Shown here in pieces: positions 11,090 to 18,112 of a stretch of DNA of 64,000 nucleotides. This stretch comes from Candidatus Bathyarchaeia archaeon (GTDB lineage: Archaea; Thermoproteota; Bathyarchaeia; Bathyarchaeales; Bathycorpusculaceae), in NCBI GenBank assembly GCA_038727135.1, contig JAVYWL010000001.1, forward strand, positions 736,001 to 800,000, written 5' to 3'. A program made the position numbers and the translations under genes. A model generated the notes under the pieces. The model was not told the DNA's origin. It saw nothing but the letters and a program-made list of their open reading frames with translations, and ran no database searches. Every line of letters begins with the position of its first letter. Positions within the stretch are counted from its first letter, which is position 1.

Positions 11090-11710
11090 GTGGAGAAAGG
11101 CTTGACACAACGAGAGCTTGAGTTCGAAGTGCCAAAATGGAACCAAATATATAAAATGCTCATACAAATAGCGGAAAAAATAAGGAAAGACAATTTTAAG
11201 CCAGACGTAATTGTTGGCGTTTCCCGTGGCGGATGGCCCCCAGCAAGAGTCTTATCAGATCTCTTGGAGAATCCAAACCTCGCCAATGTTAAGGTTGAGT
11301 TCTATGTGGGTGTGGCTGAAACTAAGGGAGAGCCAACCCTAACACAGCCTGTTTCTGTTAATGTGGCCGGTAAAAGAGTGCTTGTTGTGGACGAGGTTGC
11401 CGACACTGGCAAAAGCCTCAAACTCATAAGGGAGCACTTGCAAAATGAAGGCGCCGCCGAGGTTAGGATTGCCGCTGTTTACCTCAAGCCATGGAGCATA
11501 ATAAAGCCGGACTATTACGCTAGAGAAACAAGCCGCTGGATAGTTTTCCCATGGGAAATAAAGGAAACCATAAGAAAAATAGTCAAAAAATGTAAGGAGC
11601 AAGGCGAGCCTGTTGAAAAGGATATGGAAAAACTGGTGAGGGCTGGCTTGTCCCGAAGGCTTGTTAACCATTTCTTGAAAGAGATTTGCGGGGAAGAAGG
11701 GGTTTGCTGA
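11090..11710 (+). CDS. Type I phosphoribosyltransferase (purine PRT-like)
   Basis: GVSRGG, VLVVDEVADTGKSL, WIVFPWE. Confidence 0.9.
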   Translation: MEKGLTQRELEFEVPKWNQIYKMLIQIAEKIRKDNFKPDVIVGVSRGGWPPARVLSDLLENPNLANVKVEFYVGVAETKGEPTLTQPVSVNVAGKRVLVVDEVADTGKSLKLIREHLQNEGAAEVRIAAVYLKPWSIIKPDYYARETSRWIVFPWEIKETIRKIVKKCKEQGEPVEKDMEKLVRAGLSRRLVNHFLKEICGEEGVC

Positions 11711-12270
11711 GATATCTCGAAGAGTTTGGCAAGTATGTGGCTATTGCCGGCTTCAAGGATGTGAAAGTGGCTGATGTTGAGGGTTTTCTTGAAACTGTTA
11801 GAAAATGTTTGACAAAAAATGTGGAAGCCCAGTTTTTTGATGCCGAGTTTGTGGCTACTTGGCAGCACTTGTATTTTGCAGTTTTAAATGCCTTGAACGC
11901 CTTCAAAAACGGCGTTAACATTTCAAAAAACCTAGCTGTGGAGGTGCTGCTTTATGCTTCTGCCCAGCGTCAAATTCGAAAAGCCATGAGCCTTCTTGGA
12001 GTAAAACCCAACTGTGAGGCGATTGCAGTTCTCGTCTTGGGGGAAAGGGCAGAAGATGTGGAGGCAGCCCTACAAGCCATATCAAAAATTGTTGGTGGAC
12101 GGCGTGACGATGCCGTTTTGGAACTTTCACGAGAAAAGATTGAGGCTATTCAAAAAGCCTTCGAAATTTCAAACGTGGAGCTCGAGGCAGTTGTGAGGGA
12201 AAACGACTTGGAGCAAGCCCTAGTTAACCTAGTCATCGAGCGTGTGGCGCTCTTGGCAACTGAGCGTTAA
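11704..12270 (+). CDS. cgi121: KEOPS complex subunit Cgi121
   Basis: HLYFAVLNA...ISKNLAVEVLLYASAQRQIRKA...LVIERVAL. Confidence 0.9.
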   Translation: MLRYLEEFGKYVAIAGFKDVKVADVEGFLETVRKCLTKNVEAQFFDAEFVATWQHLYFAVLNALNAFKNGVNISKNLAVEVLLYASAQRQIRKAMSLLGVKPNCEAIAVLVLGERAEDVEAALQAISKIVGGRRDDAVLELSREKIEAIQKAFEISNVELEAVVRENDLEQALVNLVIERVALLATER

Positions 12271-12803
12271 AGCACTTTCTCCTTCACAATTGATAGAATG
12301 TCTTCCGGCTTAATCACCGAAAGCCCGGTCAACCCGCCGATAACTTCGATTAGGAGAATCTTGTCAGGCTTGTTTAGGTCCACTTTGCGTTCAATGTTGG
12401 CTGCTGCCGCCTCAATAATGTCCCTTGTTGAAGTTTCCGTGAAGCGCTTCTCAACGGTAATCCTGAAAGTTTCGTTTTTGCCGATTTTTGAGCTTAGTTC
12501 TATGGCTGCCCGCTGGATTTCCCCCAAATCTGTGCGGATAACCTTCTCTATTGGGATTATGCGCAGTGTATAGCGGAACTCGTAGGGGCGTTCTCGGAGA
12601 ATCTGCCTAAACTTTTCAATAACTTCAAAGGGGTTGAAAGCCGTTTTTGCTGCAATTAAACCAGCCACTCCAGTCTTGTCCACAACAGGTGCCGAGTCTC
12701 CGATCTCGCCAAGCAAATACCAAAGTTCGGAGCAAGCCTCATCTTCGTTTCCTCTTGAAGTTGTGGCTAAAAGGTTGAAGTCCCTAAGCACATAACCACC
12801 CAC
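12267..12803 (-). CDS. THUMP domain protein (Tan1/THUMPD1-like)
   Basis: FNLLATT, RIIPIE, TFRITVEKR, KVDLNKPDKILLIEVIG. Confidence 0.9.
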   Translation of the reverse strand: MGGYVLRDFNLLATTSRGNEDEACSELWYLLGEIGDSAPVVDKTGVAGLIAAKTAFNPFEVIEKFRQILRERPYEFRYTLRIIPIEKVIRTDLGEIQRAAIELSSKIGKNETFRITVEKRFTETSTRDIIEAAAANIERKVDLNKPDKILLIEVIGGLTGLSVIKPEDILSIVKEKVL

Positions 12804-12988: not shown

Positions 12989-13942
12989 ACGCCAAAACCC
13001 GTAATCGTTGTACATGGCGGCGCTGGAAACTGGCAGCCAGAACGCATAAACCCGGGACTTGAGGGCGTAAAAAAGGCGGCTAAAACAGGCTTTGACATTT
13101 TGGCTAAGGGTGGAAGTGCCCTTGACGCTGTTGTTGAGGCTGTCGCCGTTATGGAGGATGAAGGCGTCTTCAACGCTGGTTATGGTTCAAGCCTAACAAT
13201 AAAGAAGACCGTGGAGATGGAAGCCTCAGTCATGGATGGAAAAACTTTGAAGGCTGGGGCTGCCGGGCTCTTGCGGGACATTAGGAATCCGGTTAGGCTT
13301 GCACGAATTGTTATGGAGAAGACAGACCACGTCTTCATTGTTGGCGAGGGAGCAGAAAAGCTCGCAAAACTGTTCAACCTTGAAAGGCGGAACCCGCTTA
13401 CGGAGCTCCGCCTAAAATATTATGAGCAGGCGAAGCAAGCCCTTCTGGATGGCAAGTTTGAACTGCCAAAACTTGCAGAACTGGTTAAAAGTCATCCAGA
13501 ACTTTTTGATCTTGAAACGGTTGGCGCTGTTGCCTTGGATTTGGAGGGAAATGTTGCAGCTGCCACATCCACAGGCGGTTTTCCATTGAAGATTCCTGGA
13601 AGGATTGGCGACTCGCCCTTGATTGGATGTGGCACCTACGCCGATAATAGGAGTGGTGCTTGTTCCGCCACAGGCGTTGGCGAAATCGCCATAAGGCTTG
13701 TTTTGGCGAAGACCGTTTGCAACTACATGGAGAGCGGCAAAACCGCACAGGAGGCTGTTGAAGCCGCCATAAGACTTGTTAATGAGCGGATGGCTGGAAC
13801 CTACAACTCCATGGGTTTAATCGCCGTGGACAAGCAGGGAGAAATTGGAGCCGCCCACAACTCTAAACATTTATGTTGGGCTTATCTTAAACCTGGAATG
13901 CAGGAGCCGGAAGCGGCATTAACGGCAAAAATTCTGAAGTAA
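12989..13942 (+). CDS. Isoaspartyl peptidase/L-asparaginase (Ntn hydrolase); apparent ACG start
   Basis: The conserved PKPVIVVHGGAG N-terminus lies upstream of the ORF-track start; ETVGAVA nucleophile Thr, TSTGG, GRIGDSP, TGVGE. Confidence 0.9.
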   Translation, partial: TPKPVIVVHGGAGNWQPERINPGLEGVKKAAKTGFDILAKGGSALDAVVEAVAVMEDEGVFNAGYGSSLTIKKTVEMEASVMDGKTLKAGAAGLLRDIRNPVRLARIVMEKTDHVFIVGEGAEKLAKLFNLERRNPLTELRLKYYEQAKQALLDGKFELPKLAELVKSHPELFDLETVGAVALDLEGNVAAATSTGGFPLKIPGRIGDSPLIGCGTYADNRSGACSATGVGEIAIRLVLAKTVCNYMESGKTAQEAVEAAIRLVNERMAGTYNSMGLIAVDKQGEIGAAHNSKHLCWAYLKPGMQEPEAALTAKILK

Positions 13943-14060
13943 ACCTTTTAAAATATGGGCGTGTAATCAAGGAGGTTTCTCGACAGCAGTCGAAAGAAAA
14001 TGCTTAAAGCAGTCTTTTGAGGCTCTCACTATGCCAAGCCCACGGTTAGGGGAGGTGAAA

Positions 14061-14135
14061 ATGGTGTTCGAGGAAGAAGAGGAATGGGAAGAGGAAGACT
14101 GGGAAGAAGAAGAGTGGGAAGAAGAGGAATGGTAA
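14061..14135 (+). CDS. 24-aa hyperacidic micro-protein MVFEEEEEWEEEDWEEEEWEEEEW
   Basis: SD GGAGGTGA just upstream of ATG, mixed synonymous Glu codons, TAA stop, downstream T-rich tract. Confidence 0.65.
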   Translation: MVFEEEEEWEEEDWEEEEWEEEEW

Positions 14136-14263
14136 AAACCTTGAAGAAGTTTATGTTTCCCTCGTTTTCTTTTTAACCCGAAAAGTTTTTAGCACCGCGC
14201 CAATCTGATTTTAGGCTCATATTTATGTTGTGAGACACATAACTAGATAGTTGCTGGTAAACT

Positions 14264-16063
14264 ATGACGCGTGTGGCAGTGTTAGACTCTGATAAGTGCA
14301 AGCCTAAGCGTTGTGGAAAACAGTGCCAACGCTTTTGCCCAATGGTGAGGAGCCACGTTGAGGCAATCCGCTTCGAAGACACAAAACCACTGATTGTTGA
14401 GGCTCTCTGCTCCGGTTGTGGAATATGCGTCAAAAAATGCCCGTTCAGCGCCATATCAATAGTGAACCTTCCAGACGAGCTGGAAAAGGAGTGCAGCCAC
14501 AGGTTCGGACCAAACACCTTCAAACTTTATAGGCTTCCAACACCATCACCTGGCACTGTTCTGGGGCTTCTTGGGAAAAATGGAATTGGAAAGACAACAA
14601 CATTAAAGATTCTTTCCGGCGAGGTTAAGCCAAACCTTGGAAATTATGAGAATCCGCCCAGCTGGAGCGAAATTATAAGATATTTTAGGGGTTCAGTGCT
14701 GCAGGACTATTTCCAGCGGATGAGTGAGGGCAAACTTAAAGTTGTGCATAAGCCCCAATATGTTGACAAGATTGCAAGAGCCGTTTCAGGAAGGGTTGGC
14801 GAGCTTCTCAGAAAAGTGGATGAGCGGGGCGTTCTTGAAAATGTTGCTGAAAGACTTGAGTTGAAAACCATCTGGGATAGACCCATCGAAGCTCTAAGCG
14901 GCGGCGAACTGCAGAGGGTGGCTGTAGCCGCAGCGATATGCAGGGAAGCCGACGTTTACCTTTTCGACGAGCCCTCCAGCTATCTTGACGTGAAACAAAG
15001 GCTTGAGGTTGCCAGAGCCATAAGAAGCCTAAAAAATGAGGGAAAAATTGTCGTTGTAGCCGAACACGACCTTGCAATAATCGACTACCTCTCAGACCAA
15101 ATATGCATATTCTACGGCGAGGCTGGCGTTTACGGAATAGTTTCCCACGTGCACGGCGTTAGGACGGGCATAAACATTTACCTTCAAGGCTATATTCCAG
15201 ATGAAAATATCCGCTTCAGAAAAGAAGCAATAGTATTTCATGAAAAACCACCGACCATAAGCTTCGGAGCTGGAGAAACTCTCCTGAAATGGGATAGATT
15301 GGAAAAGACCTATGAAGGCTTCAAACTCGTCGCCCAGCCAGGAGAAATCAGAAAGGGCGAGATAATAGGGATTCTTGGACCAAACGGCATTGGAAAAACA
15401 ACCTTTGTAAAAATATTGGCTGGCTTGGAGAAAACCGACGATGGGAAAGAATTCAAAGAGCTAACAGTAAGCTACAAGCCACAATACATTTCTGCTGAAT
15501 ACGAGGGCACAGTGCAGGAACTTTTAACAAGTATAGCGAAGGAGGACTTCACATCGGGCTGGTACAAGGCTGAAATCCTCCAGCCTCTTGGAATTACGCC
15601 GCTTTTGGAGAGAAACATAGCCGAGCTAAGCGGCGGCGAACTTCAGAAGGTTGCCATAGCCGCATGCCTATCCAGAAAGGCTGAACTTTATCTTCTAGAC
15701 GAGCCAAGCGCCTACTTGGACGTTGAGGAGAGGCTTAACATGGCGAGAACCATACGCCGAGTAATAGAGGCTAGAAACGCCACAGCCTTCGTTGTTGAAC
15801 ATGACGTTGTCGCTCAAGACTTTATTGCAGACCGTTTAATGGTTTTCACGGGCGAACCGGGAATAAGGGGCGTAGCCAACCCGCCCACAAGCCTAAGGGA
15901 TGGGATGAACGCTTTCCTAAGAGAGATGAATGTAACCTTCAGAAGAGACCCGGTCACGAAGAGACCCCGCGTCAACAAGGAGGGCTCAAAGCTGGACAAG
16001 TATCAGAAGGAGATAGGCGAATACTATTATGTTAGGCATGTAGCCATAACAGAAGAGGATTAA
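14264..16063 (+). CDS. rli1: Ribosome recycling ATPase ABCE1/Rli1
   Basis: N-terminal FeS cysteines (CKPKRC...CSGCGICVKKCP) and two ABC domains (GKNGIGKT, GPNGIGKT, LSGGELQ). Confidence 0.97.
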   Translation: MTRVAVLDSDKCKPKRCGKQCQRFCPMVRSHVEAIRFEDTKPLIVEALCSGCGICVKKCPFSAISIVNLPDELEKECSHRFGPNTFKLYRLPTPSPGTVLGLLGKNGIGKTTTLKILSGEVKPNLGNYENPPSWSEIIRYFRGSVLQDYFQRMSEGKLKVVHKPQYVDKIARAVSGRVGELLRKVDERGVLENVAERLELKTIWDRPIEALSGGELQRVAVAAAICREADVYLFDEPSSYLDVKQRLEVARAIRSLKNEGKIVVVAEHDLAIIDYLSDQICIFYGEAGVYGIVSHVHGVRTGINIYLQGYIPDENIRFRKEAIVFHEKPPTISFGAGETLLKWDRLEKTYEGFKLVAQPGEIRKGEIIGILGPNGIGKTTFVKILAGLEKTDDGKEFKELTVSYKPQYISAEYEGTVQELLTSIAKEDFTSGWYKAEILQPLGITPLLERNIAELSGGELQKVAIAACLSRKAELYLLDEPSAYLDVEERLNMARTIRRVIEARNATAFVVEHDVVAQDFIADRLMVFTGEPGIRGVANPPTSLRDGMNAFLREMNVTFRRDPVTKRPRVNKEGSKLDKYQKEIGEYYYVRHVAITEED

Positions 16064-16065
16064 AC

Positions 16066-16488
16066 ATGGTTAAAATTGGTGAGGCGGAGCAGGCCCTTTT
16101 AAAGGAAGCCTCAAAGGCTTTAGCGAACGCCTATGTGCTTTGGGGTTTTGGCGTTGGCGCGGCAGTTCTGGCTGAGGACGGAAAGATTTATGGCGGCTGC
16201 AATGTTGAAAGCTGGGTTTCCGGGCTTGGCATCTGTGCTGAAAGAAACGCCATAAACCACGCCATTTTACACGGGAACAAGAGGATTAAGGCAATAGCCG
16301 TTGCGACAGATGCCAAAAACGAGGGTGAAATAAAACCTTGCGGGGCTTGCCTCCAATATATTTCGGACTTCGCCGAAAGCTCCGAAATTAAAATTGTCAT
16401 GGCAAAAGTTGAAAACACTCAAGTGTTGTTTGAAACGGTTAAGATAAAGCGGCTCAAGGAGCTCCTCCCAGAGCCTTTTGAGAAATGA
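16066..16488 (+). CDS. cdd: Cytidine deaminase (homotetrameric type)
   Basis: GCNVE, ICAERNA and PCGAC zinc motifs. Confidence 0.85.
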   Translation: MVKIGEAEQALLKEASKALANAYVLWGFGVGAAVLAEDGKIYGGCNVESWVSGLGICAERNAINHAILHGNKRIKAIAVATDAKNEGEIKPCGACLQYISDFAESSEIKIVMAKVENTQVLFETVKIKRLKELLPEPFEK

Positions 16489-16573: not shown

Positions 16574-18112
16574 GTGGAGGCTAGCGTGGCACAGGTAACC
16601 TTCGAAGAAATAAGTGCATCAGATTTCTTCTATAGAAACCGTGACATAGCAGGATTCACAAACCCAACGAGAGCCATTTTTGCGGCGATCCGTGAACTTG
16701 TGGAAAACTCTTTGGATGCTGCTGAAAGCCTCAAAATACCACCAGAGATTTATGTTAGGCTCTCCTTTGAGGGCGAGGCGAGCAAGGAAACCCAAATCTA
16801 CAAGCTACGTGTTGAGGATAATGGCTGTGGTGTCCCGCCTAGGCATATCCCTTCAGCTTTTGGGCAAGTGCTTTTCGGTTCAAAGTATAAGCTGAAACAG
16901 CAGAGGGGAACCTTCGGCTTAGGCGGTAAAATGGCTATTTTGTATGGGCAGATAACAACCCACCAGCCAGCCACAATAATTTCCAGTACTGGCATGTCAA
17001 GGATTTACATGTACAAGCTTATGATTGACATTCAACGAAACCGCCCAATAATCCTTGACCGAAAGGTGTTTTTGAACAAGGAGGGCTGGCGCGGCACCAT
17101 TGTCGAGTTCTGCCTTGAAGGCGACTATTTGAGGGCTATGCCAAAAATCCTAGAATATTTCAAGCAGACGGCTATGGTGAACCCCTACGCCAACCTCACC
17201 TTCGTAGATCCGAAAGGCAGACTCTACAAGTTTACTAGGGCAACCACAGTTATGCCGGACCCGCCAAAAGAGACTTTACCCCACCCATACGGCGTTGATG
17301 TGGAGCTTCTCCAACGCCTCATACAGGTTACGCCCTACAACAACATGCTCGAGTTTCTGAAAAACCACTTCCATCGTGTGGGCGAAATAACAGCCAGAAA
17401 GTTCCTAGAGTTCAGTGGCATAAGCCCATCCAAAAACCCGAAGAAGCTATCCCACGAGGAAATTGTCCGGCTTATGCATATGCTGAAAAAGTTTAAGGAG
17501 TTCCTCCCACCAGACGCCAGTTGCCTCTCCCCACTAGGTGAGGAACTGCTAAAAACAGGCGTTTTAAAAGAGCTTAAACCAGAGTTTGTGGCGGTTCACC
17601 AGCGGAAGCCCGCTACTTATGCTGGACACCCCTTCATTGTGGAAGTGGCAATAGCCTATGGCGGGGAAATCCCACAGAAAGGCGGCTTCCTAATATACCG
17701 CTTCGCAAATAGGATTCCACTTCTTTATGATGAGGCAAGTGACGTTTCAGTCAAGGTTATAAATGAAATGAACTGGCGACGCTACAAGGTTACGCCGGAC
17801 ATGCCCATAGCAATAGTTGTCCACATCTGCAGCACAAAAGTCCCCTACAAAACTGTCGGAAAAGAGTTTATAGCCGACAGACCGGAAGTCCGGCGGGAGA
17901 TAGCCAACGGCTTAAGGGAAGTAGCACGCCAACTCCAGCGTTTCTTAACACGAAGAGAGCACGTGGACAGAGAGCGCAAACGCCTAGGAGTTTTCAGCAA
18001 ATACTTGCCAAAAATTGCCGAGTTCTCCACAAAACTTGCCGGCAAGAAGAAGCCTCCAGACATCGAGAAGCTTTTAAGGAGTGTGAGAAGGTTTGGAGTC
18101 GAGGGAATTTAA
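16574..18112 (+). CDS. top6B: DNA topoisomerase VI subunit B
   Basis: ELVENSLDA, DNGCG, RGTFGLG, RFANRIPL. Confidence 0.96.
   Translation: MEASVAQVTFEEISASDFFYRNRDIAGFTNPTRAIFAAIRELVENSLDAAESLKIPPEIYVRLSFEGEASKETQIYKLRVEDNGCGVPPRHIPSAFGQVLFGSKYKLKQQRGTFGLGGKMAILYGQITTHQPATIISSTGMSRIYMYKLMIDIQRNRPIILDRKVFLNKEGWRGTIVEFCLEGDYLRAMPKILEYFKQTAMVNPYANLTFVDPKGRLYKFTRATTVMPDPPKETLPHPYGVDVELLQRLIQVTPYNNMLEFLKNHFHRVGEITARKFLEFSGISPSKNPKKLSHEEIVRLMHMLKKFKEFLPPDASCLSPLGEELLKTGVLKELKPEFVAVHQRKPATYAGHPFIVEVAIAYGGEIPQKGGFLIYRFANRIPLLYDEASDVSVKVINEMNWRRYKVTPDMPIAIVVHICSTKVPYKTVGKEFIADRPEVRREIANGLREVARQLQRFLTRREHVDRERKRLGVFSKYLPKIAEFSTKLAGKKKPPDIEKLLRSVRRFGVEGI

Follow-up and report, generated by a model that had tools for sequence, protein, structure and literature searches.

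The 64,000-nucleotide stretch of Candidatus Bathyarchaeia archaeon DNA analysed here (the window) raises an unusual question in the gap between an asparaginase_2-family gene (13100-13942; Pfam) and the gene for the ribosome-recycling factor ABCE1. A frame of only 24 codons would there encode a peptide made almost entirely of glutamate, with tryptophan at regular intervals: is this frame a gene and, if so, what does its product do? The original prediction described a stand-alone gene with a TATA-like box, a Shine-Dalgarno sequence (SD), an ATG at 14061, the peptide MVFEEEEEWEEEDWEEEEWEEEEW, a TAA stop and a T-rich tract, and the sequence reads as described. The parts of the locus are:

13976-13993, + strand: near-palindrome TTTC-TCGAC-AGCA-GTCGA, directly 5' of the BRE/TATA region; candidate operator that a dimeric regulator would bind
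13994-14009, + strand: BRE/TATA-like promoter region AAGAAAATGCTTAAAG, with the TATA-like GCTTAAAG at 14002-14009 and TTAAA at 14004-14008
14024-14035, + strand: CTCACTATGCC block, ~25 nt after the TATA; putative transcript start region
14051-14058, + strand: Shine-Dalgarno sequence GGAGGTGA, 8 bases
14061-14135, + strand: micro-ORF, 24 codons plus TAA (14133-14135), product MVFEEEEEWEEEDWEEEEWEEEEW
14165-14174, + strand: oligo-T tract TTTTCTTTTT, terminator-like, 29 nt after the micro-ORF stop
14218-14227, + strand: separate TATA-like box of ABCE1, CATATTTATG, ~40 nt before the ABCE1 ATG
14264-16063, + strand: ABCE1 (599 aa), a conserved neighbour that begins 128 nt 3' of the micro-ORF stop

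As read from the sequence, the peptide includes 16 Glu, one Asp and Trp at residues 9, 14, 19 and 24, has no Lys, Arg, Cys or Zn-ribbon, and closes with Glu-Glu-Trp; 11 GAA and five GAG codons alternate among its glutamates. Translation may in fact begin at GTG 14064 and yield 23 residues, because this GTG follows the SD by 5 nt, the spacing found in relatives that lack the ATG; ATG 14061 follows it by only 2 nt. A further in-frame ATG at 14031, which would give a 34-aa form, lies at or before the putative transcript start. The product of 23-24 residues, with a net charge of about -17 and a C-terminal Trp whose carboxylate would be free, is almost certainly disordered, and a micro-ORF of this type occurs once in its own 1.55-Mb genome.

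The frame is a real micro-gene, apparently with expression of its own, and one that is built for strong translation. With a promoter-like region ahead of it and a T-tract behind it, followed by a separate TATA box for ABCE1, it looks like a transcription unit of its own, which bears out the claim that the gene stands alone. The BRE/TATA-like consensus AAAATGnTTAAA (also written AAAATGCTTAAAG after the palindrome) is found family-wide at a constant distance from the SD, and the start-region block is kept as CACTA(T/A)GC in many relatives, with the family form CACTATGC preceding the SD. Past the stop, a T-rich tract sets in after ~17-31 nt in the relatives inspected, among which TTTTCTTT recurs, and CATATTTATA is kept across the family between this tract and ABCE1. 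The SD is exceptional, in that GGAGGTG is found before just four of the 942 long ORFs of the genome; under the start-picking rule used here it precedes 78 of 154 micro-ORF instances, and a 6-mer of it precedes another 37 of the 154.

The palindrome lies upstream in 25 of the 28 aligned relatives, with the consensus TTCTCGACA-NN-TG-NCGAA in the window's family. It is single in its own genome (its weight-matrix score of 27.3 compares with 17.2 at the runner-up site), where a regulon search with it returned no further site and no regulon. A variant, CGTCA-NN-TGACG, accompanies copies of the micro-gene that are unlinked to ABCE1 (upstream regions of L135, L150, L091 and L081 compared). Being single in the genome and travelling with the micro-gene, even to unlinked second copies, the palindrome suggests a dedicated regulator.

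RNA reads from the locus are few. Three of four metatranscriptome runs had none there and the fourth had 16, all oriented as + strand RNA would be in a usual stranded library. Their depth is 0 over 13969-14050, ~1 over 14092-14214 and 2-4.6 at the start of ABCE1, and one or two of the 16 cross the T-tract from the micro-ORF toward ABCE1, a profile that is compatible with a transcript start downstream of the TATA-like box and some read-through, 16 reads being far too thin to decide. The locus matched no Rfam 15 family (best matches 10-19 bits, gathering cut-offs 37-85), its RNA folds no better than shuffles (z from -1.1 to +0.8), and a tRNA scan of the window found none.

Conservation argues for a peptide. 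We searched for ABCE1 in 60 relatives and took 30 loci, one of which (L014, with 46 nt upstream) is uninformative. All 29 informative relatives have, on the same strand and 5' of ABCE1, an acidic and in most cases Trp-studded micro-ORF that keeps frame, SD, start and stop. A GGAGGTG-type SD sits a few bases ahead of an ATG, GTG or TTG start, and the distance from stop to ABCE1 (28 loci measured) is 101-249 nt in 27 and 896 nt in one. The peptide ends in Trp in 26 of the 29 (exceptions L027, L028 and L029), and a terminal Phe is found in two Sulfolobaceae genomes; in total, 100 distinct peptides share the architecture. Among the 11 closest loci, which comprise nine distinct DNA sequences, 12 sites vary, every one of them at a third codon position and synonymous. 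The ORF core averages 0.93 identity, compared with 0.80 and 0.78 for its 63-nt flanks and 0.85 for the opening 315 nt of ABCE1. More distant relatives show Glu-to-Asp changes and shifted or doubled Trp, always in frame. Synonymous-only variation nearby, in-frame changes further out and the higher identity of the core together indicate selection on a peptide. The original prediction had read the alternation of GAA and GAG as a mark of such selection rather than of slippage, and the 12 synonymous sites agree with it; it had also staked the gene on homologous ORFs with frame and SD conserved, which are present in all 29 relatives and in other classes.

The wider range of the gene was explored with a DNA pattern, W-[DE]4-W-stop; of 401 genomes sampled across the phylum, 60 have it, almost all of them as a single match, and a reversed-pattern control was found in one genome among the matches listed. 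A scan of one genome per species, made without using ABCE1, listed at least 120 stretches, mostly from Bathyarchaeia, and 103 of 120 stretches listed are micro-ORF-like. Among the matches listed are Acidianus copahuensis, Metallosphaera javensis, Ca. Aramenus and Thermogladius, records of Pyrodictium, Hyperthermus, Ignisphaera and Desulfurococcaceae, and a handful of bacterial chance matches. The positions of ABCE1 at these 103 loci, all counts being among the matches listed, are:

39-574 nt downstream, same strand (median 131 nt): 75 of 103
729-1449 nt downstream: 5 of 103
divergent from the micro-ORF: 5 of 103
upstream of the micro-ORF: 1 of 103
no ABCE1 in the locus: 17 of 103, of which 10 have less than ~1.1 kb of downstream sequence and 7 have at least 3.4 kb

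A pattern search of this kind, for repeat ORFs and their synteny with ABCE1, had been proposed with the original prediction, and its result is in line with it. The same-strand pairs include Acidianus, Metallosphaera, Pyrodictium, Hyperthermus and Ignisphaera records. The pattern undercounts the gene, since 11 of 20 pattern-negative genomes from other families, including four of five further Sulfolobaceae and a Methanomethylicia genome, nonetheless carry an acidic, aromatic-ended micro-ORF beside ABCE1; the other nine have no micro-ORF within 1.5 kb of ABCE1, one of them belonging to a family with no pattern match in 56 genomes. The gene is thus found in Bathyarchaeia, Sulfolobales, Desulfurococcales and Methanomethylicia, and outside Bathyarchaeia too it mostly adjoins ABCE1. 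Throughout the window's order the whole block of asparaginase_2, micro-ORF, ABCE1, cytidine deaminase and topo VI-B is syntenic, so that linkage there says little, and the linkage across classes is the informative part: from class to class, the micro-gene and ABCE1 are inherited together. A spacer of just 42-56 nt in Sulfolobaceae, where GGTG precedes ABCE1, suggests an operon of the two genes. Some Bathyarchaeia have a second, unlinked copy that keeps the peptide type and a palindrome-plus-TATA variant, and no conserved gene follows these copies.

Not every micro-ORF has ABCE1 for a neighbour. In one family (f30; L059 and L060) it lies away from ABCE1, upstream of genes that by eye are a putative S-adenosylmethionine decarboxylase and a SIS-domain protein. 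At a Nanopusillus locus (L148) a 50-aa variant with a basic N-terminus (30-182) stands ~30 nt upstream of translation initiation factor 1A (PF01176; 212-514), and there is no ABCE1 in the 7.8 kb downstream.

The gene was previously unannotated, and gene callers miss it. Pfam-A (hmmscan of the 24-aa and 34-aa forms, E up to 10) returned no family, DSS1_SEM1 included, and NCBIfam has no matching family for the peptide; an exact look-up of 10 peptides in a 15-billion-protein collection found none present, and the best ESM Atlas scores, 0.77-0.78, are below the level of a lead. With a natural 40-aa relative as protein query, the only matches were two clusters of 'hypothetical protein' from Methanomethylicia; a natural 50-aa relative as query found no near or longer protein and hence no fused form by this route, which is weak evidence. 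A profile search of 401 genomes with a peptide alignment (A2) matched one and missed the peptide's own genome, a failure of the method on low-complexity sequence and not a sign of absence. In the portions of the published literature consulted (on the peptide strings, small proteins and uORFs at archaeal ABCE1, and Sulfolobus small proteins) nothing on the gene was found, though supplementary tables of small-protein surveys in Sulfolobales, should there be any, might list the ORF already. Trypsin-based proteomics would miss a peptide without Lys or Arg. New here are the cassette of promoter and palindrome, its retention by unlinked copies, the finding that the SD is rare, the linkage counts from a scan blind to ABCE1, and a fused LysW-like form described below.

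As a real gene kept beside ABCE1 in several archaeal classes, it probably encodes a small helper of protein synthesis. We favour, at a probability of about 45%, a polyanionic, aromatic-anchored ligand that would act in trans on the recycling and initiation machinery. This is the kind of role raised in the original prediction, where the peptide could mimic single-stranded nucleic acid as a decoy or chaperone for basic proteins, perhaps in connection with ribosome recycling. Its acidic runs would attach to a surface of the apparatus served by ABCE1 that is strongly basic and binds nucleic acid, at best guess the interface of the small subunit, basic ribosomal proteins, or ABCE1 on its Fe-S-domain side; the tryptophans would insert into hydrophobic pockets, and the peptide would shield the surface or hold it open until RNA or other factors displace it. 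That the peptide accumulates, that it binds anything, and to which target, are steps that we infer. Action in trans is favoured by the apparently autonomous cassette (palindrome, TATA, SD, ORF and terminator), by the divergent, unlinked and duplicated copies that keep the peptide, by the conserved periodic Trp and terminal aromatic residue, by larger Zn-ribbon proteins that end in the same tail, and by the conserved TATA that ABCE1 has for itself.

Two such proteins were found. A 73-aa LysW-like Zn-ribbon protein (L154, 6979-7200; PF21344 at 25.9 bits, cut-off 27) ends in an acidic-Trp tail like that of the micro-protein, and the ending is similar in a Zn-finger ORF from Hadarchaeota (L110), which the locus edge truncates. 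The neighbouring genes kept across loci encode ABCE1, a THUMP protein and an RPB9-type Zn-ribbon protein, joined within the window's order by asparaginase_2, a deaminase and topo VI-B. The RPB9-type protein, of 94-103 aa, has an N-terminal Zn-ribbon and a conserved acidic C-terminal helix or tail; it recurs in the neighbourhood of ABCE1 in Thermoprotei and Methanomethylicia, often between the micro-ORF and ABCE1 or else beside ABCE1 (L063, L094, L134, L140, L181 at 1171-1473 and L187 at 1193-1477).

ABCE1 itself is not very basic (net charge +2 overall, +4 over its first 75 residues) and hence a poor charge match for a peptide of -17, which makes the small subunit or basic ribosomal proteins possible targets in its place. 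The charge of its Fe-S domain averages +3.75 where the micro-ORF is present (n = 63) and ranges from -2 to +5 where it is absent (n = 9), a weak trend confounded by relatedness. A predicted complex of ABCE1 and peptide scored 0.00, which speaks neither for nor against binding, a 24-residue chain being outside the calibration of the tool.

Small, acidic, disordered proteins that dock on basic patches or mimic nucleic acid are known, among them DSS1/Sem1, which uses acidic/Trp segments to bind PCI-domain or OB-fold partners, and prothymosin-alpha (with histone H1). Like the DSS1/Sem1 kind, the archaeal peptide is very small, stands free, is extremely acidic and presumably disordered, and has conserved aromatic anchors; it differs in matching no such Pfam family, in being three times shorter, and in its near-perfect (acidic)4-Trp repeat, terminal Trp and genomic link to ABCE1. 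The N-terminal acidic motif of eIF3j/Hcr1, which acts together with ABCE1 at the small subunit, is likewise an acidic stretch centred on a Trp, but eIF3j is a much larger protein and the likeness is one of description, with no detectable homology. We know of no eIF3 in archaea.

A bolder version of the trans-acting reading has a slim chance: the peptide could be a missing archaeal translation factor, a free polyanionic mimic of nucleic acid placed in the mRNA/tRNA cleft or at the small-subunit interface of the ABCE1 post-splitting complex. It would then stand in functionally for the acidic, aromatic-anchored tails of eukaryotic initiation factors and couple recycling to re-initiation, and, a poly-acidic frame being hazardous to translate, the amount of peptide made could signal whether ribosomes are intact. 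All archaea and eukaryotes have ABCE1 and cannot do without it; to our knowledge, no accessory factor is dedicated to it in archaea. A peptide gene kept beside it in four archaeal groups points to an unrecognised component of recycling or initiation. Because cultured Sulfolobales carry the gene, the question is directly testable by genetics and by existing in-vitro splitting assays. Cells here keep, and apparently express strongly, a frame consisting almost entirely of the sort of acidic N-terminal stretch that is otherwise avoided in proteomes. Asp/Glu runs at the N-terminus cause translation to abort in both bacteria and eukaryotes, according to excerpts of two reports (PMC9718836, PMC11162784), so the peptide may be made inefficiently.

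The reading that ranks second is a cis-acting leader peptide (uORF) for ABCE1, which we consider unlikely. Translating a risky poly-acidic frame, or terminating at its stop, would indicate how stable ribosomes are or how much capacity there is for recycling, and this signal would set read-through or re-initiation into ABCE1 and so give homeostatic control of the recycling factor. Mg2+-sensing leader peptides with ribosome-destabilising acidic runs are known from bacteria, leader-controlled ABC-F genes are also known, and the micro-ORF shares with them its shortness, its N-terminal Asp/Glu run and its place upstream of a ribosome-associated ABC ATPase. That place, directly upstream on the same strand, is the rule among the matches listed, but a leader should always lie in cis, and the five divergent loci, the one downstream of ABCE1 and the seven unlinked with at least 3.4 kb of following sequence (of the 103 listed) leave the peptide intact, as do the unlinked second copies that precede no conserved gene. 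The short spacer in Sulfolobaceae, with an SD-like GGTG before ABCE1 as for internal genes of operons, and the one or two reads that run on toward ABCE1 fit a leader; against this, the window's family has a conserved terminator-like T-tract and a separate conserved ABCE1 TATA between the two genes. Poly-acidic N-terminal nascent chains destabilise ribosomes, an effect that ribosome-bound ABC-F ATPases counter in E. coli (excerpts of PMC9718836 and PMC11162784), but for such destabilisation the periodic Trp, the terminal Trp or Phe and the hydrophobic N-terminus are superfluous. Known acidic leaders also differ from the micro-gene in these conserved aromatic residues, and the fused forms bear the tail at the C-terminus of a protein.

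A second alternative has a faint chance: by analogy with Lto1 (which acts with Yae1), the peptide might help the Fe-S domain of ABCE1 to mature, either as an adaptor or as an independent address tag with a C-terminal Trp. We know of no archaeal receptor for such a C-terminal tripeptide, nor of archaeal counterparts of Cia1 or Mms19. The genome has one Cia2-type domain (PF01883), but so do 13 of 14 control genomes, and the presence of so nearly universal a domain is uninformative. Linkage to ABCE1 and the terminal Trp, replaced by Phe in the two Sulfolobaceae, recall Lto1, an Fe-S adaptor that serves only Rli1/ABCE1 and whose functional tip is a conserved C-terminal Trp (Phe in some organisms) with a free carboxylate (PMC4523923, in excerpt). 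The peptide, however, has no deca-GX3 motif, and of the eukaryotic signal [LIM]-[DES]-[WF]-COO- (PMC10245660, also in excerpt) it fits the last two positions and has Glu, not Leu, Ile or Met, at position -3, which leaves the likeness to Lto1 an analogy only.

A fainter chance still attaches to a minimal relative of the LysW-type amino-group carriers, reduced to the tail, or to a precursor peptide that is made by ribosomes and then modified by enzymes. Acidic C-terminal tails that end in an aromatic residue are known from single-strand-binding proteins; in tails of the LysW and SSB type, partner enzymes use basic clefts to recognise an acidic run together with a Trp or other aromatic residue close to the C-terminus, and the LysW-like protein of L154 bears the same tail as the micro-protein. 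The latter, however, would be the tail alone, with neither Cys, Zn-ribbon nor any globular domain, and it ends in Trp, whereas the attachment site of LysW is a C-terminal Glu. Among the conserved neighbours across classes there is no ATP-grasp, radical-SAM or other known peptide-modifying enzyme, which speaks against the modified-peptide precursor considered in the original prediction; metal binding, also raised there, found no support in the context.

That the locus holds no protein gene at all, and is instead a (GAR)n element of RNA or DNA, rich in purines, or a microsatellite prone to slippage, in either case open by accident, has next to no chance: third-position A/G changes also keep purine richness and the transcript would be only ~140 nt, but variation is strictly in codon register at 12 of 12 sites, Glu-to-Asp changes bring in pyrimidines, lengths differ by multiples of three, SD and start keep a fixed spacing whether the start is ATG, GTG or TTG, the stop follows the last Trp, and neither the Rfam search nor the folding set the RNA apart.

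A few minor observations were made along the way. In the window, neighbouring ORFs encode a homologue of CGI-121 (KEOPS; 11686-12270), a protein with a THUMP domain (12267-12803), one with a cytidine-deaminase fold (16066-16488) and, judged from the ORF, a putative topoisomerase VI subunit B (16574-18112); the THUMP gene recurs near the pair of micro-ORF and ABCE1 in other classes (L063, L181 and L187). At one locus (L185, G078:C2) the open frame of ABCE1 extends to 925 aa and the match begins at query residue 54, which may reflect an inserted element, for instance an intein, or else an extended N-terminus. At another site (G000 C3 230089, + strand) a 63-aa small ORF rich in Lys, Glu and Gly also has a perfect GGAGGTG SD and may be another unannotated small protein.
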